Source: Candidatus Poriferihabitaceae bacterium
GTDB taxonomy: Bacteria; Pseudomonadota; Gammaproteobacteria; Arenicellales; Poriferihabitantaceae
Direction: 5' to 3'
Length of the DNA stretch: 64,000 nucleotides
NCBI GenBank assembly: GCA_965203265.1
Contig: CBDBBV010000002.1
Location: 1,362,773 to 1,426,772 of the forward strand
Below, piece after piece: positions 10,662-64,000 of this stretch. Under the pieces are notes generated by a model, which ran no database searches, was not told where the DNA came from, and was given only the letters and a program-made list of their open reading frames with translations. Within the stretch, counting starts at the first letter, position 1. Each line of letters begins with the position of its first letter. The translations under genes were made by a program, and so were the position numbers.

Positions 10662-13600
10662 TCAGTCCACCCACACCCGCGCATTGCGGAAAATCCGGAT
10701 CCACGGGCTGTATTCCCCCCAATCGTCCTCGCCATCGGGCCGCCAGGAATTGCACACGGCGCGAAACACCCGTTCCGGATGGGGCATCATGATGGTGAAC
10801 CGCCCGTCCTCGTTGGTGAAGCCGGTTACGCCGCCGGGGGAGCCATTGGGATTTGCCGGATAGACCTCGCTGGCGCGCCCGTGGTTGTCGACGAAGCGCA
10901 GACCGATCTGTTGGCGGCGCTCCAGCCGGGCGAGATCGCCGGCGGCGAATTCCGCCCGACCCTCGCCGTGGGCGGTTGACACCGGCAGCATGGTGCCGCG
11001 CATCCCGCGCAGCAGCACCGACTCGTCCGAGCACACCTCCACCATGGCCACGCGGGCTTCGTACTGCTCCGAGCGGTTGCGCGCGAAGCCGGGCCAGTGC
11101 GCCGCGCCGGGTATCAACTCCTTGATGGCCGCCATCATCTGACAACCATTGCAGACGCCCAGAGCGAAGGTGTCCGCACGCGCGAAGAACTCGGCGAAAA
11201 TGTCCCGCAGCCGGGAGTTGTACAGAATGGACTTGGCCCACCCCTCTCCGGCTCCCAGCACATCACCGAAGGAAAACCCGCCGCACGCGGCCAAGCCCTT
11301 GTAGCGCACCAGCGACCGATCGGCGGCGAGATCGCTCATGGTTACATCCACCGCGGCAAAACCGGCGCGGTCGAACGCCGCCGCCATTTCCAGCTGGCCG
11401 TTGACTCCCTGCTCGCGCAGGATGGCGATCTTCGGGCGCTGTCGGCGCGTCGCAAACGGCGCGGTGATGTCCGTCTTGTGGTCGAAGGTCAGCCGGGAAA
11501 ACAGCCCCGAATCGTCGCGCGCCTCGATGCGCGCGTATTCCTCATCGGCGCACGCCGGGTTGTCGCGCAACTTCTGCATGCGCCAAGTGGTCTCGGACCA
11601 AGTGCGCTGCAGCGCCACGCGCGCCACCCGCAGCAAGGTCTCGCCGCCGCGAGTGATGTCGATGTGGTCGTCTTCGCTGATGCGGCCGATGCGATGAGCC
11701 GCCTCCCCCAGCCCGAATTGGCGGATTTGCGCCGCAATGGCATCGCGCTCGGCGCGGCGGGTCTGGATTACCGCGCCCAACTCCTCGGTAAAGAGCACCG
11801 CGAGGGGGGGGCCAGCCAGCCGGTCCAGCTCGATATGCAGGCCGCAGCGCGAGGCGAATGCCATCTCGCACAGGGTGGCCATCGCGCCGCCGTCCGAGCG
11901 GTCGTGGTAGGCCAGTATGCGCCGCTGGCGGGCGAGGGATTGAATCAGCTCGAAGAATTGCCGTAGCAGGTTGGCATCGTCCACATCCGGCGCCGAGTCA
12001 CCCATCTGCGCGCTCACCTGCGCCAGCACCGAGCCGCCCAAGCGGTTACGGCCGAGGCTCAAATCCAGCAGCCACAGGTCGCTGCCGTCTTTGCCGAGGC
12101 GGCAATCCAGCCGAGGCGTCAGGGTATGGCGGATGTCGTCCACCGCGGCGAACGCCGTTACCACCAGCGAAACCGGCGAAACCGCCTTGCATTCGCGCTC
12201 GGCTCGGTCGCGCCACACGGTTTTCATCGACATCGAGTCCTTGCCCACCGGAATCGATATACCCAGTTGCGGACACAGGTCGAGTGCAACCGCGCGCACC
12301 GCCCGAAACAAGTCGGCGTCCTGACCGGATTCGCCGGCGGCGGCCATCCAGTTGGCCGACAGTTTGATATTGCCGATGGTGCCGATGCGCGCCGCGGCGA
12401 TATTGGTGATCGCCTCGCCCACGGCCATGCGGCCACTGGCGGGAGCGTCGAGCACGGCCAGCGGCGTACGCTCGCCGAGGGCGACCGCTTCGCCGGTATG
12501 GGTGTGATAGTCGTCGGCGACCACGCCCACATCCGCCACCGGCACCTGCCACGGGCCGACCATCTGATCTCTGGCGACCAAGCCGCCGACGCTGCGGTCG
12601 CCGATGGTTACCAAGAAAGTCTTGTCGGCCACCGTAGGGAAAGCCAGCACCTGTTCAGTGGCGCGCCGCAGGGACAGGCCATCCAAGCGCAACTTCGCGC
12701 GTGCGCCGGGGGCGCTGACGGCATCCAAATTCATCTTCGGCGGCGAGCCGAACAACATCGCCATTTGCAAATCCACCGGAGTCGCGTGCGGCTTCCCCTG
12801 CGCGGCAAAATGCTCGTCGCGCACCAGCAGATTCTGCGCCGCATCGGCGCGCCCCACCTCGGCGTAGGGGCAACGCTCCCGCCGGCAGATCGCCTCGAAC
12901 TCGGCAAAACGAGACGGCGCCACCGCCAGCACATATCGTTCCTGCGATTCATTGCACCACACCTGCATCGGCGTCATGCCCGATTCGTCGCTGTGCACTC
13001 GCCGCAATTCGAAAGTGCCGCCGCGCGCGCAATCGTGCAACAGCTCCGGCAAGGCATTGCACAGTCCACCGGCGCCGACATCGTGGATGGAGACGATGGG
13101 ATTGCCTTTACCCAGCGCGCAGCAGGTGTCGATGACTTCCTGACAGCGCCGCTGCATTTCCGCGTTGCCGCGCTGCACCGAGGCGTAATCGAGCGTTTCC
13201 GAGCGGTTGCCGGAAGCGACGCTGGAGGCGGCGCCGCCGCCCAGCCCGATCAACATGGCCGGACCGCCGAGTACGACTATGGGGGCGCCTTCGGGGATGG
13301 TGTCCTTGCGGATGTGTTGTGGGCGGATGGCGCCGATGCCGCCGGCCAGCATGATCGGCTTGTGGTAGGCGTGGCGGAAGGCGCCGTCGCCGCCGGGCGG
13401 AATCTGCTCGAAGGCGCGGAAGTAACCGGCGATGGCGGGTCGCCCGAATTCGTTGTTGAAGGCGGCGGCGCCGATGGGCGCTTCCAGCATGATGCGCAGC
13501 GGCGAGGCGATGCGCGCCGGTTTGCATTCGTCCCCCTCCCACGGGCGGCGGCAATCCGGTAGCCGCAGGTGCGACACCGAATAGCCGACTATGCCCACCT

Positions 13601-17877: not shown

Positions 17878-20800
17878 GTGGATATGGGAGGATGGCATCT
17901 TTCTCCGACACGTGACCCCCTTTGGATGAAGCGGAAAATGAACGATGTAGAAAAGAAACGGAAAGATTTTATCGAGAAGTTGGCTCGTAAAAATAGGAAG
18001 CTTTATGGAACATCCGATGGGAGCGGACTGCTGAGGGTAATCAAATTCGCTTTTGAGCATAGTTGGGTCTACGTCTTCGAACTGGTTCAAAATGCACTTG
18101 ATGCAGGTGCGCGCTCAGTTGCGCTTCGACTGACCGAAGACGGTGATTCCCTGATTTTTCAGCATGATGGAAATTGCCCTATCAAGAAAAAGGACGTTAA
18201 AGGACTCTCTAAGGTTCTACGATCTACCAAAGGCGCATCTTCCGTGGGCTTTATGGGCATCGGTTTCAAGAGCATCTTTACGCGATTTCAGGAGGTTCGG
18301 GTCTCTGGGTGGAGATGGACATTTCGCTACAAGGTTTCACAGCAGGTTGGTGGTAAATACGGAGACGTACAACGCGATTGGCTGGGGGCAGTGATTCCAA
18401 TCTGGGATGACACAATCGCCGCACCTGACGGTAGATTCACAACCCGTTTTGAAATGCGCCAACGAACGAAGAGAGATACGGATTTGAACTCCGATTTGAC
18501 ACACTTTCTTCCTGATAATGATTGTACATCCCTCGCAATTCTAGCAGTGTCTGGGCTGAAACGCCTCGAGATAAACGGTCGGATATGGAAATTGAACGTC
18601 AGCGCGGAACACAATGGAAGATCGGAGGCGACTGCTCTTTCGGAAGGAAAGATCCGGCGTTGGCGAGTTTTTCCAGTGGAATTCAAACCTTCCCGTGAAG
18701 CGGTCGCCTGTTTCCTCGAACACCGCGATATCCAACCAACCGAGGAAAAACGCGAGCAGGTGGAGGCGGAAGCTGCCCGCCCTCGCAAAGTGCTGGGAGT
18801 ACTACCTTTGGATGAAAATGGTATACCTGACCCACCACTCAGAGGACGTGTCTACGCCACCTTACCAACCGAGGTTACCGTGCCCTTTGGCCTCCACATC
18901 CATGCCGACTGGTTGTTGAATATATCGAGGAGCGGTTTTAAAGAACTTGAAGACAACCCGTGGCAGCGCGGTATCACGGACAAGATCGCGGACATTATTG
19001 GAGCATTCCTCGAGTGGTCCGCCGATACGCACACACAGCCCGATGCGGTGAAAGCAACGTTCAACGTCCTTGCACCACCGTTGCTCGAAGTAGGCGGTCT
19101 TGAAAAGCTTCTTGCCGAGGATAGCTGGCTGTCGAGATTGCGGAAACGTATTGAAGATTCTGCGGTATTCCCCGTCTGGACTGGTGAACCGAGCACCGTG
19201 AAGTTTGCGAAACCGGGTGAAATTCTTGTCCCTCCGAAACCGCTGACAGATGCATTTGAGGAAAAACCGGAATTACGGCCGACAGATCTCTTGAAAGGGC
19301 ATGTGCTCAGATATGACTTGCTTGGAGATGAGGCGCTTGAATTTCTGCGCCGAATTGGTTTTCTTACCGAAATGTCGCCGCGAGACTTGGAGCGTGCGTG
19401 GAAAGATGGTTTGGAGGAGTGGTGGAAAACACTCCCCAACAATAAGAAGGAGCGCCGTCAGCTGCTTTTCCGCATTTGGGCTGCTGTCGCTGACCTGTCC
19501 TACGATGAAGCATGGCGAGATGCCAAGCTCCCGTGCATCCGTTCCGTCACCGGGAAATGGCTTCCGGTGGATGAGGCCGCATTCATCAAAGGGAATCTAC
19601 CGAAAGAAGATCAGCCGGGCGGTGCTGAGACGCTTCAGTTCATGCAACCATTTATCAAGGATGAAAACCGCTTGCCGAACCAATGGATTACTGCGCTGGA
19701 TCAATGGTATAGCCAACCAGAGGATTCAGACCCAATGAAAAAAGCTTGGAAATGGATTAAGGATGAGGATAACGCAAAAAGCATTAGTCTCAAAGAAATT
19801 GTCGAGGACGCGATGAACACTCTGATATCCTCGACAACGCCTGACTGGTCGGTGCTCGTACCGTTTGGGCACTGGGCAAAGCACGGAAATCGCCATGACC
19901 TGTTGACTCACGTGCTCGTAGAATCAGAAGACAACCCGCAGGGTGTGCCAGTTAGAGAGGCACTCTTGGCCGACCCTTATATCGAACATGGGCAGGGCCG
20001 CCGATGCTTTTTTCCAGATATTCCCGCAATCGTGCCGGCTTATCTGGAACGGGACCCCAAGAACGCAGACGCCCGAGAATGGGGTGAGTTTTTCAAGAGG
20101 GCTGGCGCCCAAGGCCAGATTGAAGTGCTGCCAATAAAAAAGAAAGCCGGTCGATATGATAGGAATACAGTCGCAGAGTTTCTTTGTCGTCAAGTCGGAA
20201 AGGAGGACGAATCCAATGACGACGGTTATACGCTTACGGACTTCGATATCAATCCAGAGATTCCAGAATCAAATGCACCAGAAGAACAACGAATGGCTTT
20301 TGCGCTTTGGCTTAACGGCGAATTCAACGAACTGAAAGGCAAGGGAAAACGGCAAGCATCGTATTATTTCGGCAAACAGAAGCCCCCCCTCGAGGGGAAG
20401 GCACCTAGCATTTGGGTAAACAAACTATCCGAACTTGCCTGGATACCCTGCAAAGACGGAAAACTCAGGCAACCACGAGAGATACTTCGGCAGTTTGATC
20501 CCGCGCGGGAAGACGCGCCGGTCGCACAGTTATCGTCCGAGCTTATGGATGTGTTGGAAAAAGAAGGTGTGGAATTCGGTACGGATATTCCCGAAGCCAC
20601 AGCGCTCAGCCGCTTCTTGAATATTGCCTCCAAGCCCGATGCGAAAGAGCTTGCACAGTGTCTTTCCGAGTGTCGCAAACAGATAGAGACAGAAACAGAT
20701 AAAAATAGCTTCGTTCAATCTCTGCCAAACCTCAACATACCATTTGGCGATGACAAACACGTGCCACTCAACCGAATCGTCCGTCGAGCCGGAACGGGCT

Positions 20801-22440
20801 ACGGAAGCGATCTCGGTGGCTGGATTGTGCCATTGGATCGCATTGACAAAGAATTGCGAGAAGAATTGAAGCACCCCGATTTCCGCTACACTGTCCCGGA
20901 AGTCACCACGGGCGATCAAGCCTTGAATTACATTCAGCATGTCTGGAGGCGTGCCCGCTCGTCACCTGAGAGACTGGCGATCGAGGTTCGCGACGTTCTC
21001 CCGGTCGCCTATGGGTACTGTTTGGAAGAGTGTTCCAAAGACGTTGAGCTCTCGGATTTATGGAACGCAGCAAAACCACAAGCAATGGTATTTGTGGAAC
21101 GAGAATGGGTCTCCTTGACGAACGCCAGCAATATCTACTTCGACGATATCGAAGATCGGCGCTTTATACCCAATAAAGGCGAATTTCAAACCGTCACGGG
21201 TGGGCATCTAGGCCGCGACCTGCCCGAACGGATTCGTACCGTGGGAGCACTTGACCTGCCGTATCTATCTTCAATTGTAAAACGTGATTGGGATGAAGGC
21301 GAGACGTTAGCAGTTTCCTTCGATTGGTCATCCAAATTCAAATTTATATGCAAACTTCTCCGGCAGGTGCGGGGAAATGATCCTGCGGAGGGCGACAGGG
21401 CGGATAATGGAACCGATACACGACTGCGTCTTCTCCATGTTAGTAAACTTTCTTTGAAAGTCAGCATCGGGAATTCCACTGCTGAAAGCGTACCTGTGCA
21501 CGCCCGAATCCACGAGAAAATTCTGACTGTTGCAGGCCAGCCACTTGAGTTCGGCACCGACGCATCCAAGGAACTTCGACGCCATTTCTCTTTCGGGCAA
21601 CGCGCTGATCTTGCAACGGATCTCACCGGAATGCTCATGACCATCAATGACCCGGATTCGTTTAATTCCGCCGCCGAAAAATTTCGGCGTGCGCATGTTC
21701 CTGATTATGAATTGCCTACAGAATTCCGTCATGAGGCCACAAGTGGAGACATGACTGGTTCGGCATACAAGCCAGATCAAACCACCGTAGAATCAGATGT
21801 ACCCATGAGTCGAGTCGCACCCTCAAATGGCGGCTCTAGCCCCGGCAGGTCCGACCTGTCCACAGATAGCGAGGCAGTCTATGCTCCATCCGGTATGCCC
21901 AATACACCCGGACATCGGGTGTCGAGCTCGATGGGCGGCTCGTATACCAAGAACAGAGCTAAAGCTCTTGCGGAAATCAAGCCGCCCCATCAACAAGACG
22001 ATACAAACAAGGTAGGAACGACTAATGGAAATCCCGGCGCGTTTCACGCAGACACAGAGGAACGACAAATCGCCGCGAAATACGAAAGAGAAGATGGTCG
22101 TGAACCGGAACTCCTTCCCTTCCACCACAAAGGCTGGGATATCCGTAGCACCGATCCGAAAAGCGGAACGGTTCGCCTGATCGAGGTGAAAGGAAAGGGA
22201 TGTCCATGGGTTCAGGATGAAATCGTGGAGCTGAGCCATACACAGTTACGCGCAGCATTCGAAGCATCCGGCGAACCGAACACAGATTGGTATCTCTATG
22301 TTGTGGAGAAGACGGACAACGGCGATTACCAAGTGCTACCTATTTCGAACCTAGACCTTAAAGCCAATTTGGTCCTCTGTGGTGAGTCTTGGCGGGGGTT
22401 GGCAGAAAACCCCAAACGCTTCGAAAACCCTTCACAATAA
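17878..22440 (+). CDS. 1520-aa protein: N-terminal GHKL/sacsin-like ATPase domain + long unassigned middle + C-terminal DUF3883-like PD-(D/E)xK nuclease domain
   Basis: GHKL motifs are FELVQNALDAG (N-box, ~nt 18079), QHDGN and GFMGIGFKS. The C-terminus is GWDIRS...RLIEVKGKG...DWYLYVVE (~nt 22057-22380). G+C falls sharply inside the gene: 28/60 at 18001-18060 versus 40/60 at 17101-17160 by hand count. The start is uncertain (GTG 17878, ATG 17926 or ATG 17938). Confidence 0.8.
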   Translation: MDMGGWHLSPTRDPLWMKRKMNDVEKKRKDFIEKLARKNRKLYGTSDGSGLLRVIKFAFEHSWVYVFELVQNALDAGARSVALRLTEDGDSLIFQHDGNCPIKKKDVKGLSKVLRSTKGASSVGFMGIGFKSIFTRFQEVRVSGWRWTFRYKVSQQVGGKYGDVQRDWLGAVIPIWDDTIAAPDGRFTTRFEMRQRTKRDTDLNSDLTHFLPDNDCTSLAILAVSGLKRLEINGRIWKLNVSAEHNGRSEATALSEGKIRRWRVFPVEFKPSREAVACFLEHRDIQPTEEKREQVEAEAARPRKVLGVLPLDENGIPDPPLRGRVYATLPTEVTVPFGLHIHADWLLNISRSGFKELEDNPWQRGITDKIADIIGAFLEWSADTHTQPDAVKATFNVLAPPLLEVGGLEKLLAEDSWLSRLRKRIEDSAVFPVWTGEPSTVKFAKPGEILVPPKPLTDAFEEKPELRPTDLLKGHVLRYDLLGDEALEFLRRIGFLTEMSPRDLERAWKDGLEEWWKTLPNNKKERRQLLFRIWAAVADLSYDEAWRDAKLPCIRSVTGKWLPVDEAAFIKGNLPKEDQPGGAETLQFMQPFIKDENRLPNQWITALDQWYSQPEDSDPMKKAWKWIKDEDNAKSISLKEIVEDAMNTLISSTTPDWSVLVPFGHWAKHGNRHDLLTHVLVESEDNPQGVPVREALLADPYIEHGQGRRCFFPDIPAIVPAYLERDPKNADAREWGEFFKRAGAQGQIEVLPIKKKAGRYDRNTVAEFLCRQVGKEDESNDDGYTLTDFDINPEIPESNAPEEQRMAFALWLNGEFNELKGKGKRQASYYFGKQKPPLEGKAPSIWVNKLSELAWIPCKDGKLRQPREILRQFDPAREDAPVAQLSSELMDVLEKEGVEFGTDIPEATALSRFLNIASKPDAKELAQCLSECRKQIETETDKNSFVQSLPNLNIPFGDDKHVPLNRIVRRAGTGYGSDLGGWIVPLDRIDKELREELKHPDFRYTVPEVTTGDQALNYIQHVWRRARSSPERLAIEVRDVLPVAYGYCLEECSKDVELSDLWNAAKPQAMVFVEREWVSLTNASNIYFDDIEDRRFIPNKGEFQTVTGGHLGRDLPERIRTVGALDLPYLSSIVKRDWDEGETLAVSFDWSSKFKFICKLLRQVRGNDPAEGDRADNGTDTRLRLLHVSKLSLKVSIGNSTAESVPVHARIHEKILTVAGQPLEFGTDASKELRRHFSFGQRADLATDLTGMLMTINDPDSFNSAAEKFRRAHVPDYELPTEFRHEATSGDMTGSAYKPDQTTVESDVPMSRVAPSNGGSSPGRSDLSTDSEAVYAPSGMPNTPGHRVSSSMGGSYTKNRAKALAEIKPPHQQDDTNKVGTTNGNPGAFHADTEERQIAAKYEREDGREPELLPFHHKGWDIRSTDPKSGTVRLIEVKGKGCPWVQDEIVELSHTQLRAAFEASGEPNTDWYLYVVEKTDNGDYQVLPISNLDLKANLVLCGESWRGLAENPKRFENPSQ

Positions 22441-25979: not shown

Positions 25980-28900
25980 TCAGAATCGTGTCTCGCCCTT
26001 CAATAGAACTGCGTGGTCGGCATCCGCATTCGCCGATTCGCGGCGTTCGCCGGATAGGCGCAGGGTGAACGGGAACGAGCCTTTGGAAGCCCAATCCACG
26101 CCCAGACGATACAGTTTGCCGTTTTCTTGCAGAGTCAGGCCGCCCCATGGGGTGAGTAGGCCGTTTCGTTGGCCGGGGGTGGATAGGCCGTAGCCCATGC
26201 GTATTTCCAGTCGTCCGCTGGGGTCGTGGGCGACAGGAGAAGCGTCTCCGCGCAGGCCGTTCGACCAGATTTGGCCGGTGTTGCCGCCGCCGTTGTTGCC
26301 ATAGCCGGGGCGCATCACGAAGGACAGGCCCTGCCCATCGGCGCCGGGGGAGTTGCGTAGGGTGGCTTGGATGCCCCATTCCTCGTAGTCGTTTCGGCCA
26401 AGTAGGGCGTGGGCTGTGGCGGAGGCGTTTATGCCGGTTTGCGGGTTGGTATAGCGCACGCCGGTGGCGATTTCCGCGCCGGCGCCGGTGTTGCCGTCTC
26501 CGCCGTCGTGGCGCATTCCGAGGGAGAATGACGGGGAAAGGTGGCCGCCGTTGGTGAGGCTACGAGTGCGGCTGGCTTCGGCGGCTAGGCGCATGAGGGT
26601 GGCGTCTACCGTGAGGGCGGCGGTTTGTTCGCTTTTTTCTACCTCCATCTCGGTTTGCGTGAATTCGCCTTTGAGGCGCACGTTGGCGGTGCCGTCGGCG
26701 CTCGACCACAACAGGCCGCTGCCGCCGGTGCCGATGGTGCGTAGGTTTACATCGCTGGATGTGGCTGGGCTGCCTTCGGGGGTGATTTCCACTTCGCCGC
26801 TGCCGTAACCGGCGGTAGCCCACCAACTCAGCGCGCCTGAACGCCAGCCGAGGTAGGGGTGGATGGCTTGTATATCGATCTCGTAATCGCCCTGGCCACC
26901 GCCGCCTTCGCCGGTGTCTTGGTAGTCGAACTCGCCCTCGCTCCACGATAGGGCTAGGCCGGCCAACAAGTTTTCCCGCAGTATGCTGTCTACGCCGATT
27001 TGTGCGCCGTGCAGGTTGCCGTCGAATTCCAACCCGTCGTTTTCGCCGGAGAGGTTGCGGTATTCGCCACTGCCCCACAGGGAGGTTTTGCGCACGCCGT
27101 CTGCGCGACTACTTTCGGTGTGAAACGGCAGAACGAATCGGCTACCGTGCAACAGGTCGCGTAGGGGGCGGTTTTCGTTGATCAAGCCGGGGGCGTGAGT
27201 TTGCAAGGTGCCCGCGAGGGAACTTTGGCCGCCGAGATTGGCCGAGGCGGTGCCGCCGCCCCCACCGCCGCCATTTAGCACCTGCCCGACTCGCGCCGAA
27301 ATAGCACCGGTCACCCGACCGGCCACGGCGCGCGCTACTTCGGGTAGGGCGGTGCGGTGTATCTGCTCCGTGGGGGTTTTCGGGGCGTCTTTATCGGTGA
27401 TGGTTATCGTCACCGAATTGGGACTGCCGGCGGTTACCGTGGCGGGTAGGGTGCCGAGGGCGACTGTGAAGGTTTCGTTGTCGGCATCGGCGTCCTGCGT
27501 GGTGGTGATGGTGCCGGTGGCGCTGGTTTGGCCGCTTGATATGGTGATGCTCGACAAGGTGCCGTAATCGCTGGAATCGGTGCCGCTACCGGCGGTTAGC
27601 GTTAGCGGAATGACCACATCGGCACTGGGACTGAGCGCCGCCGACAGGGTGGCCGTTATGGTTACGGAAGTGCCCTCGGCTACCGTGCTCGGCGTGGCCG
27701 AGAGGCGTACAGTGGGGATAGTGGGGGTAGTCGGTGCCGATTGCGGCAGTCGTAGGCTGAGGGGCACTGTGTTGCCCGCGGTCCAGCTCAAGCCGGTGTT
27801 CGACCAGACGGCTTGTCGACCGGTGATCGTGGCGCTCGACAGGGCGAAGGCGGTAGTGCCGACATAGAACGAGTAGGTTTTCAGCTTGGTGCTGGGGGCA
27901 AGGCCGAAACTCACGGTCAGGGTGCCGCTATTGACGGTGATTCGATTAATCGCCACCCTTACGCCATCAATCACAACACCATTGTCGTTCAAATTGAGCG
28001 AACTGTCCGTGGTGGAGCAGGTAGTAGCACCCACACCAATGCAGCCCAAGCCGTCCGCTCCGGCGTTGGTGATAGTCAGCGTGTCCGACCACAGGGTGCG
28101 CCCCGGCGTCCCCGTACCCGTAACCCACGAGCCGCCGCCCCCCGCGTTCACCGCCCGCACCCGCACATCGTAGGATGTATCGTCGGTCAGTCCCGTGATC
28201 TCCCCGCTCGCCGTGGTGCCGCTGTGTGCGGCGTCCACCCAGCCGGTGGACGGATCGCCCGCCGTGCTCGCCGCCTGATTCGCCGCGCTCGTCAACTTAT
28301 ACTGCACATCGTAGCCGCTGAGCGCCCGCGAGCCGGTGTCCGTCGGCGCGGTCCAAGTGGCGATCAGCTTACCGGGTTCCTGCTCAAGCACGAGGCCGGT
28401 GGGCGCGCCGGGGGCGACTGCCGCCGTCCGTTGTAGCGTTACCGGCAGCACCTGCCCTACGCTCCAAGTCTGCGTGGTGGTCCACTCAGCGCTCGCGCCC
28501 GTTTCCGTATGCAAAGGGAAAGGCTGGCCGCCTACATGCAGCGAGTACTCCCGCAAGGCGGCGCTCGGTGCTGGGTTGAGATTGAAGGAGGCAAAACCTG
28601 CATCGACATAAAGCCCTGTCACCGTGTGCGTCGTGCCGCTCAGAGTGATCGTGTTGTCCGTGAGCCTTGCTGCATCGCTACACCGGAAGGCGGTCACACT
28701 GTTGTCGCAGCCGTACTGGGATGATTGCTGCGCTACCGTCAGCGTGGCCGCCCAAATCGGCTGGTCGCTGGCGTCTTGCCGGGTGATGCGCACCATGTAG
28801 GTCTTTTTGGTGGTGCCGTCCTGCGCGGTAACCTCCACCATGATCGCATTCGCCCCCTCCGTCAGCACGATGGCGGCGCTGTCCGTGCCGCTGCTCACCG

Positions 28901-29165
28901 CCGTCAGGGGGGCGCTCTTGCCCACTTTCACGGTGGCGTTGGACTGGTTCACAGTCGGCGTCAGTTTGACATGGCTGATCGAATTCGCCACCAATGCCGA
29001 GTACTCGACAGTAGTGGCGGCGAAGGTGGAAGGGGACAGCGTGAGCGCGGAGAATGTACCCGTTTCGCTCGTACTGCGCGAGGCAGTCAAGGCGCTCAGG
29101 GTGGCGTCGGTGGATTGGGCGGTGGCCGGGAGAGTTGTGAACAGAAACAATGCGCCCGCGAGCAA
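25980..29165 (-). CDS. autotransporter-type outer-membrane protein with repeat-rich passenger (cadherin-like/FN3/Calx-beta-like segments); 5' end probably extends to ATG 29323 across a poly-C tract
   Basis: The C-terminal beta-barrel region (SLWGSGEYRNLSGENDGLEFDGNLHGAQIGVD...) ends in the LLKGETRF terminal Phe. An FN3-like segment reads APGAPTGLV...GYDVQYK. The track start is TTG at 29165, which lacks a charged signal n-region. Confidence 0.8.
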   Translation of the reverse strand: MLAGALFLFTTLPATAQSTDATLSALTASRSTSETGTFSALTLSPSTFAATTVEYSALVANSISHVKLTPTVNQSNATVKVGKSAPLTAVSSGTDSAAIVLTEGANAIMVEVTAQDGTTKKTYMVRITRQDASDQPIWAATLTVAQQSSQYGCDNSVTAFRCSDAARLTDNTITLSGTTHTVTGLYVDAGFASFNLNPAPSAALREYSLHVGGQPFPLHTETGASAEWTTTQTWSVGQVLPVTLQRTAAVAPGAPTGLVLEQEPGKLIATWTAPTDTGSRALSGYDVQYKLTSAANQAASTAGDPSTGWVDAAHSGTTASGEITGLTDDTSYDVRVRAVNAGGGGSWVTGTGTPGRTLWSDTLTITNAGADGLGCIGVGATTCSTTDSSLNLNDNGVVIDGVRVAINRITVNSGTLTVSFGLAPSTKLKTYSFYVGTTAFALSSATITGRQAVWSNTGLSWTAGNTVPLSLRLPQSAPTTPTIPTVRLSATPSTVAEGTSVTITATLSAALSPSADVVIPLTLTAGSGTDSSDYGTLSSITISSGQTSATGTITTTQDADADNETFTVALGTLPATVTAGSPNSVTITITDKDAPKTPTEQIHRTALPEVARAVAGRVTGAISARVGQVLNGGGGGGGTASANLGGQSSLAGTLQTHAPGLINENRPLRDLLHGSRFVLPFHTESSRADGVRKTSLWGSGEYRNLSGENDGLEFDGNLHGAQIGVDSILRENLLAGLALSWSEGEFDYQDTGEGGGGQGDYEIDIQAIHPYLGWRSGALSWWATAGYGSGEVEITPEGSPATSSDVNLRTIGTGGSGLLWSSADGTANVRLKGEFTQTEMEVEKSEQTAALTVDATLMRLAAEASRTRSLTNGGHLSPSFSLGMRHDGGDGNTGAGAEIATGVRYTNPQTGINASATAHALLGRNDYEEWGIQATLRNSPGADGQGLSFVMRPGYGNNGGGNTGQIWSNGLRGDASPVAHDPSGRLEIRMGYGLSTPGQRNGLLTPWGGLTLQENGKLYRLGVDWASKGSFPFTLRLSGERRESANADADHAVLLKGETRF

Positions 29166-29224
29166 TGCGGCGCATAGACCGATTTGGCGGCGGGCGGCTA
29201 CCCCCGCCGATTTAAACGTTAATA

Positions 29225-29246
29225 GGGGGGGGGGGGGGGGGGGGGG
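29225..29246. repeat. homopolymer G22 (C22 on the coding strand of the autotransporter)
   Basis: Counted directly as 6+10+6 G. It lies between an RBS-preceded ATG (29323) and the signal-peptide-like region of the autotransporter. Confidence 0.95.
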
Positions 29247-29602
29247 CTTGGGTTCAGGCTTGGGTTCACATTCTCGCCAACGGCGATGGTAGCGGATTGG
29301 ATGATTTGACGATGGCTATTCATGACGATTCTCCTGCGGGTGGGTGAGTTGGGCAGTCGGCTGATCTGCCGTTTTGAATTGGAGGGGCTACATTACCGGA
29401 TATTCTCGGTGCTTGGCAAGGCCCTGTACCCGGCGATTTATCGCGAAATTCGGGCGATTTTACAGATAACCGCGTCCGGCGGGGGGAAATTCGGCGTTTT
29501 TGCGCTATTTTCGGGGCGACCGACCCGATCCGGGCGCGCCGACCGCCGCGCGGGTTCTCGGTTATAATCCGCCTCCATCCGAACCACCCAGCCATCACCG
29601 CC

Positions 29603-30466
29603 GTGAAAATCGACACAGTCGGACTGTTCGGCAAATTCAATGACCGCAGCGTGAGCGGCACGGTTGCCGACATCCGTGCATTGCTGGAGAAAAATCGCCT
29701 GAAAGTCCTGCTGGGCGGCACCACCTCGCCGGCCATAGATGGCGAACGTCTGGACGAGGGCGACCCACGCCTCGGCGAGATCATCGATCTGGCCATGGTG
29801 GTGGGCGGAGACGGCACCATGCTGAGCGCGGCGCGCACGTTGGCGGCGCACGAAATCCCGGCGGTCGGCGTCAATCTCGGCCGCCTCGGCTTTCTCGCCG
29901 ACATCGCTCTCGGCGACCTGAAATCCAGCCTCGACGCCATTTTGCGGGGCGACTATCACATCGAGCGGCGTAGTTTGCTGGACACCAGCGTGCGGCGGGG
30001 GGGCGAGATCGTGTGCGGCGGCAGTTCGGTCAACGATACGGTGATTTCCAAGGGCAGCACGGGTCGCCTGATCGAGTTTGAAATCCGCGTCAACGGGCAG
30101 TTTCTCAGCCACATCCGCAGCGACGGCGTAATCCTCGCCACGCCGACCGGCTCGACCGCGTATTCGCTGTCCGCCGGCGGGCCGATCATCTATCCGACCT
30201 TGCCGGTGATCAGCCTTTCGCCGGTGTGCCCGCACATGCTGAGCAATCGCCCCATCGTCCTCGACCACAATGCGACCATCGAAATTTCCCATCTGGTGTT
30301 CGCCGAAACTCACGCCAATCTGGCTCTGGACGGGGTGATCATCTGCAAACTGCACGGAGACGAGGTGATCACGGTGAGCAAGGCGGCGGCGACTCTGTCC
30401 ATGATTCGCATCAACCGCCACGACCACTTCGAGACGCTGCGCTCCAAACTCGGCTGGAATGAATGA
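29603..30466 (+). CDS. nadK: NAD(+) kinase
   Basis: Motifs MVVGGDGTML and VNLGRLGFLAD, in an NadK-recN arrangement. Confidence 0.9.
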   Translation: MKIDTVGLFGKFNDRSVSGTVADIRALLEKNRLKVLLGGTTSPAIDGERLDEGDPRLGEIIDLAMVVGGDGTMLSAARTLAAHEIPAVGVNLGRLGFLADIALGDLKSSLDAILRGDYHIERRSLLDTSVRRGGEIVCGGSSVNDTVISKGSTGRLIEFEIRVNGQFLSHIRSDGVILATPTGSTAYSLSAGGPIIYPTLPVISLSPVCPHMLSNRPIVLDHNATIEISHLVFAETHANLALDGVIICKLHGDEVITVSKAAATLSMIRINRHDHFETLRSKLGWNE

Positions 30467-30469
30467 TCG

Positions 30470-32140
30470 ATGATCGACTGGCTGGAAATCCGCGATCTGG
30501 CCATCGCCGAGCACATCGCGCTGGAATTCGGCGACGGCTTCACCGCGGTTACCGGCGAGACCGGTTCGGGGAAATCGCTCATCGTCGAGGCGTTGGCGGC
30601 GCTGCTCGGCGGGAGATGCGAAAACGCGATGATTCGGCGGCGGCAGGAAAGCGCGGAAATTCAGGGGGGCTTCAAGTTGGACGGCTGTGAGGCGGCGATG
30701 GCGTGGCTGCGCGACAACGATTTCCACAATGAAATTGCAGATGAGGACGCGAGCGAGTGCATCCTGCGGCGGGTGGTGCGGCGCGATCGGCCGAGCCGCG
30801 CCTATATCAACGGGCGCGCCGCCACCGCCGCCCAGCTGCGCGCCCTCGGACGCGAGTTGGTGGAGATTCACGGGCAGAACGAACACCATGCCCTGCTCGG
30901 CAAGCCGGGGCAGTTGGCGCTACTCGACGGCGCCGCCGGCAACGGCGAAAAACTGGCGCGGCTGGGCAGTTGCCACGAGAAATTGATGGCGGTGCGCGCG
31001 CAAATGGCGCAGGTGACCGAACGCGGCGATCTGGCGCGCGAGCGAGCCGAGCTGCTGGGCGCGCACATTGCGGAACTGGAGTCTCTCGCCCCGCAGGCCG
31101 ACGAGTGGCCGCGACTGGAGGCACAGCACCGGCGCATGCACCACGCACAGGAGTTGGCCGAGGGGACGCGCACGGTCGCCGAGCGACTGCGGGAAAGCGA
31201 GAGCGAGGTGCTGGCGGCGTGTTGTCGGCAGTTGCGGCGGCTGGCGGAATTCGATGGGCGGCTGAACGGCATCGTCGCCATGTTGGAGGAAGCCGGAGTC
31301 AATCTGAACGAGTCCGCCGAGCAGTTGCTGGCGTTGGGCGGAGACGGCGCCGTCGATGCGGCGCAGATTGCCGAGATCGAGGCGCGATTCTCCCGCTATC
31401 ACGAACTCGCCCGCAAGCATCGGGTGTTGCCGAACCTGCTCGCGGAAAAACTCGAACAGCTGCGCGTCGAACTGGCGCAAGCGGCGGATCCGGCGGCGGA
31501 ATTGCAGCGGCTGGAGGCGCAGTGGCAGGCTCACTTGGCCGAGTACGATGAGCTGGCGGGCGAAATCGGCAAACGCCGAGGCAAGGCGGCGAAACACCTG
31601 TCCGCCGGCGTTACCGAGCTGATGCAGGTGCTCGGCATGGCCGGTGGCGAGTTGGAAATCCGCCTGCTGCCGAACGAAACGGGGCGCATCGCCCGGCGCG
31701 GCGGGGAGAGCGTGGAATTCGCCGTGAGCGCCAATCCGGGGCTGCCTCTCGGGCCGCTGGAGAAGGTCGCATCCGGCGGCGAACTGTCGCGCATTTCGCT
31801 GGCCATCAATGTGGTGCTGGCGGCGGATGCGCCGACTTCCACCCTGCTGTTCGACGAGGTGGATGTGGGCATCGGCGGGCGGGTGGCGGAGATCGTCGGG
31901 CGGAAATTGCGCCAACTGGGGGGCAGTCGGCAGGTGGTGTGCATAACCCATCTGCCGCAGGTGGCCGCCAACGGGCATCATCACTGGTCGGTGGTCAAGC
32001 AAACCGGCAAGCGGGCCACGGTCGGCGTGCACCGGTTGGACGGCAATCTGCGCGTGGAGGAGATCGCCCGCATGACCGCCGGCGCCGATTTGACGCCGCA
32101 ATCTCTGGCGCACGCCGAGCGGTTGCTGCAATCGGCATGA
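30470..32140 (+). CDS. recN: DNA repair protein RecN
   Basis: Walker A GETGSGKSLIV, a long coiled-coil middle and the C-terminal motif LLFDEVDVGIGG...VVCITHLPQVAA. Confidence 0.95.
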   Translation: MIDWLEIRDLAIAEHIALEFGDGFTAVTGETGSGKSLIVEALAALLGGRCENAMIRRRQESAEIQGGFKLDGCEAAMAWLRDNDFHNEIADEDASECILRRVVRRDRPSRAYINGRAATAAQLRALGRELVEIHGQNEHHALLGKPGQLALLDGAAGNGEKLARLGSCHEKLMAVRAQMAQVTERGDLARERAELLGAHIAELESLAPQADEWPRLEAQHRRMHHAQELAEGTRTVAERLRESESEVLAACCRQLRRLAEFDGRLNGIVAMLEEAGVNLNESAEQLLALGGDGAVDAAQIAEIEARFSRYHELARKHRVLPNLLAEKLEQLRVELAQAADPAAELQRLEAQWQAHLAEYDELAGEIGKRRGKAAKHLSAGVTELMQVLGMAGGELEIRLLPNETGRIARRGGESVEFAVSANPGLPLGPLEKVASGGELSRISLAINVVLAADAPTSTLLFDEVDVGIGGRVAEIVGRKLRQLGGSRQVVCITHLPQVAANGHHHWSVVKQTGKRATVGVHRLDGNLRVEEIARMTAGADLTPQSLAHAERLLQSA

Positions 32141-48606: not shown

Positions 48607-48809
48607 AGACGCTGCCCGCCGGTGCCGTGTGCCTGCGTTGCCTTGAACCGGAAGATTCAAGTGGGCGCCTGAGGTCGCTTCGGGATCACCAGCAGCGTAC
48701 TGATTCAGTAGCAGTGGCGATGCACGCCCGCGACCTGACTCTGGTGCCCTACACTTTGGATTAGGTCCTAAGGGATTCGGCAAACATCACGAACACCGCA
48801 GGCAGCGCA
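48607..48809 (-). ncRNA. ssrS: 6S RNA
   Basis: It sits in the conserved zapA-ssrS-ygfA position. The minus strand has a 5' arm GCGCTGCCTGCGGTGTTCG pairing with the 3' arm CACCGGCGGGCAGCG. It also has CACTTGAATC..CCGGTTCAAGG, like E. coli CACCUUGAACC..GGGUUCAAGG. An extended -10 (TGCTACAAT) lies at 48824-48816. The ends are good to +/- 10 nt. Confidence 0.7.
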
Positions 48810-62912: not shown

Positions 62913-62924
62913 GCCGTGGGGCGA

Positions 62925-64000
62925 TCAGAATCTCATCTCCCCCTTCAGCACCACGGCGTGGCTGGCATCCGAGTTGGTTTGCTCGCGCCGTTCTCCGTGC
63001 AGGCGCATGGTGAGCGGCCCGCCGGAAGTCCAATCCAGCCCGACTCGATAGCGTCGCGCATCCTCTTGCAGATTCATGCCGCCCCACGGGGTCAGCAGGC
63101 CGCCGCGCTCGCCGCTAGCCGACAGGCCGTAGCCGAGACGCGCTTCCAACCGCCCTTGCGGGTCGAAATTCTGCGTGGTGTCGGCAGCGTCTCGCATGCT
63201 CTGGGACCAGATTCGGCTGGTGTCGCCGACGCTCGTTTCGGCATTGCCGCCGTAGCCGGGGCGCAGGATGAAGGACAGGCCCTGACCGTCGGCGCCGGGG
63301 GACAGTTGCACCATGCCCGATATGCCCCATTCCTCGTAGTCGCTGCGGCCGACCAGCAGGTTCACCGAGGCGGACGCGCTCACTCTGGAGTGCGGGTTGT
63401 CGTAGCGCACGCTACCGCCGACTTCCGCACCGGTGCCGGTGTTGCCGTCGCCGCCGTCGTGGCGCACGCCGAGGGACAAGGACGGCGACCTCGATCCGCC
63501 GCCGGCCAAATGCTCGGTGCGGCTCGCCTGCATCGCCACTCTGAATAGGGTGGCGTTCACCGTCAGCGATTCGGGCATTTCGTCGTTTTCATCCACGGTC
63601 ATTTCGGTTGACATGACCTCGGCCTTGAGGCGTATATCGGAGTCGCCTTCGCTCCACACTTGGCCGCCGCCGCCCGCGCCCACGGTCCATAAACTCACAT
63701 CGCTCGATGCGGCCTCGCTACCTGCGGGGTTGACTTCCACCTCGCCGCTGCCGTAGCCGGCGGTCGCCCAGAAGTTGTTGTGCCCGGAATGCCAGCCGAA
63801 ATAGGGATGGATGCCGAGGATATCCACCTCGTAATCGCCGGTGGTGGTCGCGCCGGAGCCGCCGCTGTCCTCATAGTCCAGAGTGCCCTGACTCCACGAC
63901 AGGGCCGCGCCGGCCAATAGGTCGTTGCGCAATTTCGCGTCCACGCCGATTTGCGCGCCGAGCAGGTTGCCGTCGAATTCCACGCCCTCGCTCTCGCCGG
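62925..64000 (-). CDS. autotransporter beta-barrel domain protein, paralog of 25980..29165 (N-terminus beyond window)
   Basis: EFDGNLLGAQIGVDAKLRNDLLAGAALSWSQGTLDYED...VLKGEMRF is collinear with the C-terminal ~350 aa of the first autotransporter. The reading frame continues past nt 64000. Confidence 0.8.
   Translation of the reverse strand, partial: GESEGVEFDGNLLGAQIGVDAKLRNDLLAGAALSWSQGTLDYEDSGGSGATTTGDYEVDILGIHPYFGWHSGHNNFWATAGYGSGEVEVNPAGSEAASSDVSLWTVGAGGGGQVWSEGDSDIRLKAEVMSTEMTVDENDEMPESLTVNATLFRVAMQASRTEHLAGGGSRSPSLSLGVRHDGGDGNTGTGAEVGGSVRYDNPHSRVSASASVNLLVGRSDYEEWGISGMVQLSPGADGQGLSFILRPGYGGNAETSVGDTSRIWSQSMRDAADTTQNFDPQGRLEARLGYGLSASGERGGLLTPWGGMNLQEDARRYRVGLDWTSGGPLTMRLHGERREQTNSDASHAVVLKGEMRF

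Follow-up and report, generated by a model that had tools for sequence, protein, structure and literature searches.

Repeat-slippage phase variation is a hallmark of host-adapted pathogens, and in bacteria G:C runs longer than ∼8 nt are hypermutable and drive the on/off switching of surface proteins. Phase-variable autotransporters whose 5' coding region contains a poly-C or poly-G tract have been described in Neisseria meningitidis (NalP/AspA and MspA/AusI) and in Bordetella (BapC). The opa genes of Neisseria, in which CTCTT repeats lie in the signal-peptide coding region, and lav of Haemophilus constitute multigene contingency families.

In the present study, we analysed a stretch of 64,000 nucleotides (hereafter the window) from a Candidatus Poriferihabitaceae bacterium, in which one autotransporter gene shares several features with these systems. 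As in NalP, MspA and BapC, the reading frame of a type Va autotransporter is set by a G:C run in the first part of its ORF, and stop codons in the wrong frames follow immediately. However, the tracts are far longer (22 nt in the window and 9-31 nt in relatives, against typically ∼8-15 nt in the pathogen autotransporters), the tract follows an N-terminal extension and precedes the signal peptide, and the passenger contains cadherin-like and fn3 domains, whereas that of the pathogen systems is a protease or a pertactin-like beta-helix. Moreover, the host is an uncultured bacterium of the sponge-symbiont type and not a vertebrate pathogen, and switching is here predicted from sequence. The resemblance to opa and lav lies in the presence of several paralogues, each with its own repeat in the leader/signal-peptide region and most of them out of frame at once, and in the combination of near-identical 5' cassettes with divergent exposed parts. 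Unlike in opa and lav, the repeated unit is a single nucleotide instead of 4-5 nt, and the proteins belong to another family. Since homopolymer-controlled autotransporters are known in Neisseria and Bordetella, the mechanism is not new; what looks new is its setting, a multigene family in sponge symbionts with very long tracts in several lineages. For the window locus, we consider it probable that a single autotransporter adhesin gene starts at the ATG at 29323, that its tract is translated and that slippage would subject it to on/off phase variation.

Homopolymeric tract and reading frames at the window locus

The initial annotation had placed a G22/C22 homopolymer in the probable 5' coding region of the autotransporter gene, and this was confirmed: a perfect G22 occupies positions 29225-29246 of the plus strand and is read as C22 on the coding minus strand. 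Only one other homopolymer of at least 8 nt is present in the 64-kb window (G8 at 11804), and the number of G/C runs of at least 22 nt expected in the window from its composition (62% GC) is 6e-7. On the minus strand, a Shine-Dalgarno sequence AGGAG (29335-29331) is followed after 7 nt by the ATG at 29323-29321, and the C22 run starts 77 nt downstream from this ATG. At the assembled length, the frame opened by the ATG comprises 34 codons, reads MNSHRQIIQSATIAVGENVNPSLNPSPPPPPPPY and ends at TAA 29221-29219, two codons past the tract; the listed ORF 29219..29323 (minus strand) reads MNSHRQIIQSATIAVGENVNPSLNPS-PPPPPPP-Y-stop. The start codon, its spacing from AGGAG and the early stop had all been described beforehand and agreed with our sequence check.

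The start codon (29323-29321) and the N-terminal leader MNSHRQIIQSATIAVGENVNPSLNP(S) together cover 29247..29323 of the minus strand. A 12-nt tandem duplication, GAACCCAAGCCT/GAACCCAAGCCC (NPSL/NPS), is included in this segment at 29247-29270 (minus strand) and abuts the tract on its upstream side. The tract itself (29225..29246, minus strand), which is read as poly-Pro when in frame, is the proposed site of slippage. Past it lies the AT-rich 16-mer TATTAACGTTTAAATC (29209..29224, minus strand), with 19% GC against 62% for the window, which supplies the stop codons for both OFF frames: TAA 29221-29219 for the frame of the ATG and, for the third frame, TAA 29214-29212 after four codons. A change in the number of repeats toggles between a full-length and a truncated product, as both wrong frames end within 2-4 codons.

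The addition of one C gives a translation of 1114 aa without internal stop, in which the leader and the signal peptide are fused to the 1061-codon ORF. The frame reached in this manner runs on as LLTFKSAGVAARRQIGLCAALLAGALFLFTTLPATAQS... into ORF 25980..29165. Full-length (ON) tract lengths are thus 20, 23 or 26, as had been predicted. The frame of the body is closed upstream by TAG 29318-29316, after which the TTG at 29165 is the first ATG, GTG or TTG, in line with the earlier reading. This TTG is not preceded by a Shine-Dalgarno sequence, and a start there would fall inside the hydrophobic core (MLAGALFLF...). The signal peptide of the ON frame (29118..29225, minus strand) has the n-region LLTFKSAGVAARRQIG, the h-region LCAALLAGALFLFTTL and the c-region PATA|QS, the bar marking the putative cleavage site. 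Only with a tract of 20, 23 or 26 nt is this n-h-c arrangement (..KSAGVAARRQIG-LCAALLAGALFLFTTL-PATA|QS) in frame with a start codon.

The 1061-codon ORF (P0001, 25980..29165, minus strand) codes for a passenger followed by an autotransporter beta-domain. Three Pfam families match the body, all above curated cut-offs: Cadherin-like PF12733 (3.8e-14; about 28776-29051), fn3 PF00041 (6e-9; about 28125-28406) and the autotransporter beta-domain PF03797 (1.2e-9, 38.7 bits against a cut-off of 26; about 25983-27080), each on the minus strand. The Cadherin-like and fn3 domains lie within residues 59-367 of the 1081-aa translation. Two features of a type Va autotransporter, a beta-barrel domain at the C-terminus and a passenger ahead of the barrel, are present, and the last residues (...GETRF) end with a terminal aromatic residue. 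NCBIfam contained no family for the autotransporter protein, and a PDB sequence search with the beta-domain gave no match to any sequence relative. Current annotation splits or truncates such genes; here, the public gene calls consist of a 34-aa protein (P0125, 29219-29323) and a TTG-started 1061-aa protein (P0001, 25980-29165).

A putative sigma-70 promoter was noted at 29392..29419 of the minus strand (-35 TTGCCA at 29419-29414, a 16-nt spacer and -10 GGTAAT at 29397-29392). A strict-consensus promoter scan made no call for this block, which is kept in the related strain L082 (see later in the text), there with a perfect -10 TATAAT; the sequence of the block and its retention are consistent with a promoter role. 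With a promoter at this position, the tract would lie ∼150 nt inside the transcript and not in the promoter. A promoter-spacer model, as for Bordetella fim and Neisseria porA, was rejected, the conserved -35/-10 being situated ∼150 nt upstream of the tract. An explanation by structured RNA or an anti-Shine-Dalgarno sequence was also rejected (fold of the 5' region, z = -0.01).

In the mechanism that we propose, the C22/G22 run would be translated between an N-terminal leader of ∼26 aa and the signal peptide, and slipped-strand mispairing during replication would alter its length. The tract is a perfect repeat inside an ORF and is long enough to slip; slippage at this locus, in either direction, would be expected from the repeat. 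At n = 20, 23 or 26, the product would be a pre-protein composed of leader, poly-Pro, signal peptide, cadherin-like/fn3 passenger and beta-barrel. At the remaining lengths, translation would end 2-4 codons past the tract with no usable restart codon, so that the gene would be OFF at the assembled length of 22. Several paralogues of the family carry the same proposed switch, so that individual cells would display different subsets of adhesins, and the purpose may be the variation of surface adhesins or of phage-receptor targets inside the host. Against this mechanism, seven or eight consecutive prolines near the N-terminus would stall ribosomes in the absence of EF-P, a burden that is unexpected in a pre-sequence with a function; expression in the ON state would then be EF-P-dependent. 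Consensus sequences built from long reads err mainly in long homopolymers, and the related MAGs are products of long-read metagenome projects. The assembled length of 22 may be one or more bases off, which would alter the present state only and not the existence of a hypermutable run.

Paralogues in the same genome and the allele of a related strain

The 2,261,425-bp contig that carries P0001 also codes for P0002-P0007, P0009, P0010, P0013 and P0014; their best local alignments with P0001 show 54-82% identity. The autotransporter family thus consists of about 12 paralogues in a 2.26-Mb genome. Two members have a poly-Pro stretch in frame with a signal peptide: the N-terminus of P0006 reads MNINSRITRSTTAAIHARAAGANVNADLNPS-PPPPPPPP-SNLRFDSAS...RRLTLRSAALLAAALALLANTPAAAQSS (P8) and that of P0014 reads MNIHSRITRSTTAASVASAAGASVNTS-PPPPPPPPP-SNLGFNSAG...RRLTLRSAALLAAAFALL (P9). 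Both can be aligned to the N-terminus that the window gene has in its ON frame, and both are read through their tracts in frame (P0006, MNINSRITRSTTAA...NPSPPPPPPPPSNLRF...RRLTLRSAALLAAALALL). Poly-Pro lengths of 7, 8 and 9 are found within this genome, those of the paralogues being judged from protein sequences and not from DNA. The leader of the window gene is homologous to the leaders of P0006, P0014 and L082, and its signal peptide aligns with those of the paralogues where in frame. P0002 and P0003 are called from 'MALALLANTPA', inside the h-region, like P0001, which is consistent with their being OFF copies whose upstream tract would be out of frame. Ordinary signal peptides (MNA(P)RR...) and no leader are present in P0004, P0005, P0009 and P0010.

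A profile search with the leaders alone returned P0125 only and missed even P0006 and P0014, the word prefilter being evidently swamped by low complexity. In Pfam, the seven leaders matched neither ESPR (PF13018) nor any other family at E <= 10. The likeness to ESPR, a ∼25-aa N-terminal extension starting MN... ahead of a classical n-h-c signal peptide, is therefore positional only. At the end of the window, the 3' end of a second autotransporter copy was observed at 62928-63998 (minus strand), with a beta-domain ∼60% identical to that of the first; its 5' end lies beyond nt 64000.

Relatives of RecN at >=90% identity were found on two ENA contigs. The first is L082 (22,958 bp), which shares 95-97% identity with the window from 29329 on, i.e. 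on the nadK-recN-...-acnB side, and has an autotransporter gene in the same divergent position. Its promoter-like block (-35 TTGCCA; -10 TATAAT, against GGTAAT in the window), Shine-Dalgarno sequence (GGAGGAG, where the window has AGGAG at 29331..29335) and ATG are conserved. The ORF of L082 is unbroken and without homopolymer: the leader MNVHATGMNVNPVAAR...RRLALLPAALLAAAL passes straight into the signal peptide, reading MNVHATGMNVNP-VAARVLSLRGASIRRLALLPAALLAAALGLIAATPASA. Compared with L082, the window carries an added segment, SLNPS-Pn-LLTFKSAG, between NVNP and VAAR. Since L082 shares the Shine-Dalgarno sequence and the ATG with an uninterrupted ORF, and since the leaders of P0006 and P0014 are in frame with their P8 and P9, the ATG at 29323 is a real start. 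This upholds the initial view that the upstream ATG is used and the tract translated.

At the nucleotide level, the homology of the two strains does not reach past the start codon (window 29323-29329, L082 7408-7415); the autotransporter body has thus been exchanged. The body of the L082 gene is ∼75% identical to the other copy of the window (62922-63982). Downstream, L082 differs by an 805-aa autotransporter allele, then a methyltransferase gene and hrcA. The locus has the appearance of a hot spot of recombination whose probable breakpoint is the 5' cassette. The second contig, L080, a short-read scaffold from the same species, breaks ∼145 nt upstream of the ATG, and L082, with its different, tract-less allele, is the only same-species contig spanning the locus. 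The initial annotation had held that orthologues lacking a repeat tract would refute phase variation. Taken literally, L082 is such a case; it does not count as a refutation, because its autotransporter allele at the locus is a different one and the tract is present in the paralogues.

Homologous loci in other sponge-symbiont genomes and alternative explanations

Screening a genome collection with the family alignment gave at least 78 loci, nearly all of them in MAGs typical of sponge microbiomes. The matches listed include Thermohalobaculum, Ca. Poriferihabitaceae, Nitrospirales, Acidobacteriota and other Alpha- and Gammaproteobacteria, and the best identity among these matches is 46%. The 1.36 Mb of listed loci contain 21 runs (thresholds, C/G >=10 and A/T >=12), 16 of which are situated at gene 5' ends (15 at autotransporter genes and 1 before an adjacent giant ORF, in L021). 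In other sponge-symbiont MAGs, 16 homologous autotransporter loci have a C/G run of 9-31 nt in the corresponding place, always preceded by a short leader with an ATG start and followed by the signal peptide. These loci, with near-identical flanks around runs of such different lengths, lend support to the phase-variable surface-protein layout first proposed from the window.

In Thermohalobaculum, the runs measure C27, C29, C30, C28, C20, C25, C18, C31, C28 and C9, with the leader MNKNDLRSARSHKFSAASRCGAVL before and RFNRASLQPQPGPPGGRRGV-MPAAPRLAALLLGP... after them. Six of these cassettes have flanks that are 97-98% identical over 100 nt upstream, with runs of C18-C31, and a conserved cassette of ∼340 bp is joined to passengers that diverge. 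Over 3176 nt, L009 and L011 share 99.9% identity, but the run is C20 in the former and C18 in the latter. Length polymorphism with conserved flanks is thus seen in cassettes homologous to that of the window locus, among them three of Poriferihabitaceae (G17, G19 and G22). Three 13-nt indels were observed by the tract, a duplication upstream in L008 and in L010 and an insertion downstream in L006. In the closest family, Ca. Poriferihabitaceae, runs of G19, G17 and G22 follow MNYHNTINNMSSLDGLSSVPFNS and precede NSARRFGAALLIGFTLLLGWS, and these loci have no start codon past the tract, like the window; in a tract-less paralogue of this family (L022), the equivalent leader is fused in frame and reads MSNHSKINKLNSADSPLATPVQGLRRRFGVSLLVGF... 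continuously. AT-rich flanks with stop codons downstream of the tract are also found in the Thermohalobaculum and Poriferihabitaceae loci. Among other gamma/alpha MAGs, L012 has C18 and L014 has C10 (leader MAGKTxLGxCxTEK), and L013 has C12 (leader MKQEKAV...). Some lineages have a C run (Pro) where the closest family has a G run (Gly), which argues for selection on the DNA repeat and not on the peptide.

The ORFs downstream of the tract are intact in nearly all frameshifted copies (989 to >3000 codons), indicating that these copies are not decaying pseudogenes. The exceptions are L014, whose longest frame after the tract has 156 codons, and L002, which is counted as ON and stops after 260 codons. 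Among the DNA-verified tracts of at least 9 nt, window included, 4 of 17 are ON (L002, L005, L011 and L014) and 13 OFF, against a chance expectation of one-third ON (P = 0.28); for tracts of at least 17 nt, 2 of 14 are ON (P = 0.11). The tally is indistinguishable from chance and is no evidence either way on frame constraint; it is compatible with a family of mostly silent copies, and equally with lengths that are random or mis-called. Two further runs, G12 at L051 1275-1286 and G10 at L069 9076-9085, are inside coding bodies and not at 5' ends. A scan of JGI metagenomes with AACCCAAG+C16 returned 10 unrelated or artefactual contigs, none similar to the window.

Some loci speak against a strict switch: L012, L013 and Thermohalobaculum have an ATG downstream of the tract and before the signal peptide, and in those genomes the tract could act via an upstream ORF, in a graded manner and not as an absolute on/off. 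In L002, L004, L009, L019 and L033 (Thermohalobaculum), ∼60 nt past the tract, a TGA of one OFF frame overlaps an ATG (GTGATG) preceded by GGGAGG, while the other OFF frame stops immediately (ATT TAA), which suggests three expression states rather than two. In L021 (9833-9847, Nitrospirales OY843588), a C15 run follows AAATTTAAT and is located 15 nt upstream of a Shine-Dalgarno sequence and ATG; it has a 5'-UTR position with respect to a separate ORF of >2534 codons beside the autotransporter homologue. These loci bear on a rheostat without strict need of frame, through termination-reinitiation at an upstream ORF or through RNA polymerase slippage giving some in-frame mRNA. Long A/T homopolymers are known to provoke transcriptional slippage, which on so long a run as the present one could leak in-frame mRNA from OFF genotypes. 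However, at the window locus and at the three Poriferihabitaceae loci, no ATG, GTG or TTG is present between the tract and the hydrophobic core, the sole candidate in the window being the TTG at 29165, which has neither Shine-Dalgarno sequence nor n-region. Moreover, the tract-less alleles (L082 and L022) are read through from the upstream ATG, and the RNA structure of the 5' region is not significant. A rheostat is thus unlikely as an account of the window gene.

According to a second alternative, the frameshift is only a consensus or assembly error, the true length being 23 (or 20) and the gene a longer intact ORF with a stable poly-Pro linker. The proneness of long-read assemblies to homopolymer errors, the in-frame state of P0006 and P0014 and the restoration of the frame by a single base are in its favour. 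However, 13 of the 17 DNA-verified tracts are out of frame, so that errors would be needed at most loci, and the near-identical cassettes span 9-31 nt, well over +/-1. Poly-G in the nearest family against poly-C here shows that no particular peptide is conserved and, to our knowledge, a perfect G:C run of 22-23 nt cannot be genetically stable. We therefore regard an error as the whole explanation as very improbable. Decay of a redundant paralogue, frameshifted in an accidental repeat of no regulatory meaning, would suit a small genome with many paralogues and a gene that is out of frame as assembled, but it is hardly credible, given that the frameshift is the sole lesion in 3.3 kb with an intact, homology-supported body of 1061 codons, that the break falls exactly in the 22-nt run (chance expectation, 6e-7) and that this layout is found again at 16 or more loci in at least 5 other genomes.

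Switching of the window gene by slippage in a translated tract is thus our preferred reading. A wider reading, which we put forward tentatively and hold to be somewhat less likely than its converse, is that a modular 5' switch cassette (promoter, short leader, very long G:C run and signal peptide), either common to sponge symbionts of several classes or arisen in them by convergence, would be recombined onto large families of eukaryotic-like cadherin/fn3 autotransporters; the symbionts concerned are Arenicellales/Poriferihabitaceae, Thermohalobaculum (Rhodobacterales) and other alpha and gamma MAGs. It might then serve a community-wide bet-hedging in a phagocytic, phage-rich host, each cell stochastically showing a different subset. 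In some lineages, such a cassette may have three outputs, i.e. the fused product, termination-reinitiation at TGATG and an early stop.

Cadherin-like adhesins of sponge symbionts and surroundings of the locus

Eukaryotic-like adhesion proteins of the cadherin/fn3 type are enriched in sponge symbionts and laterally transferred between them (PMC10947273, which cites Robbins et al. 2021 on that enrichment and transfer). The window gene resembles these proteins by its passenger with Cadherin-like and fn3 domains and by its homologues in MAGs of many phyla. In the full-text literature, a scope outside which most subscription papers lie, we found no report tying phase variation or homopolymeric tracts to sponge symbionts, and none of autotransporter display of these cadherin/fn3 proteins coupled to homopolymer switches; given this scope, the negative result is absence of evidence only. 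If the proposed switch is true, stably associated, non-pathogenic symbionts would also vary their surface stochastically, possibly escaping phagocytosis or phages, and only part of the eukaryotic-like protein repertoire tallied from a symbiont genome would be expressed at a given time.

The autotransporter gene is divergent from nadK (29603..30466, plus strand) and recN (30470..32140, plus strand). Two minus-strand ORFs, 29320..29940, which has an ATGA overlap with the start, and 29438..30889, were rejected as antisense artefacts of nadK. The window also codes for single-chain PurL, AcnB, RecQ and ZnuA, and its AcnB is 86% identical to that of a Ca. Poriferihabitaceae chromosome and 82% identical to 'Arenicellales bacterium' entries. 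These values point to a gammaproteobacterium of the Arenicellales/Poriferihabitaceae type as the most likely source, a family encountered in sponge metagenome projects. In Rfam, the whole window gave 6S RNA only, distant from the tract locus; this 6S/SsrS RNA lies at 48609-48807 (minus strand) and scores 51.5 bits, over the gathering threshold. Finally, an ORF of 1520 aa at 17878-22440 (plus strand) has a single Pfam match, NOV_C (NO VEIN C-terminal), at its end.
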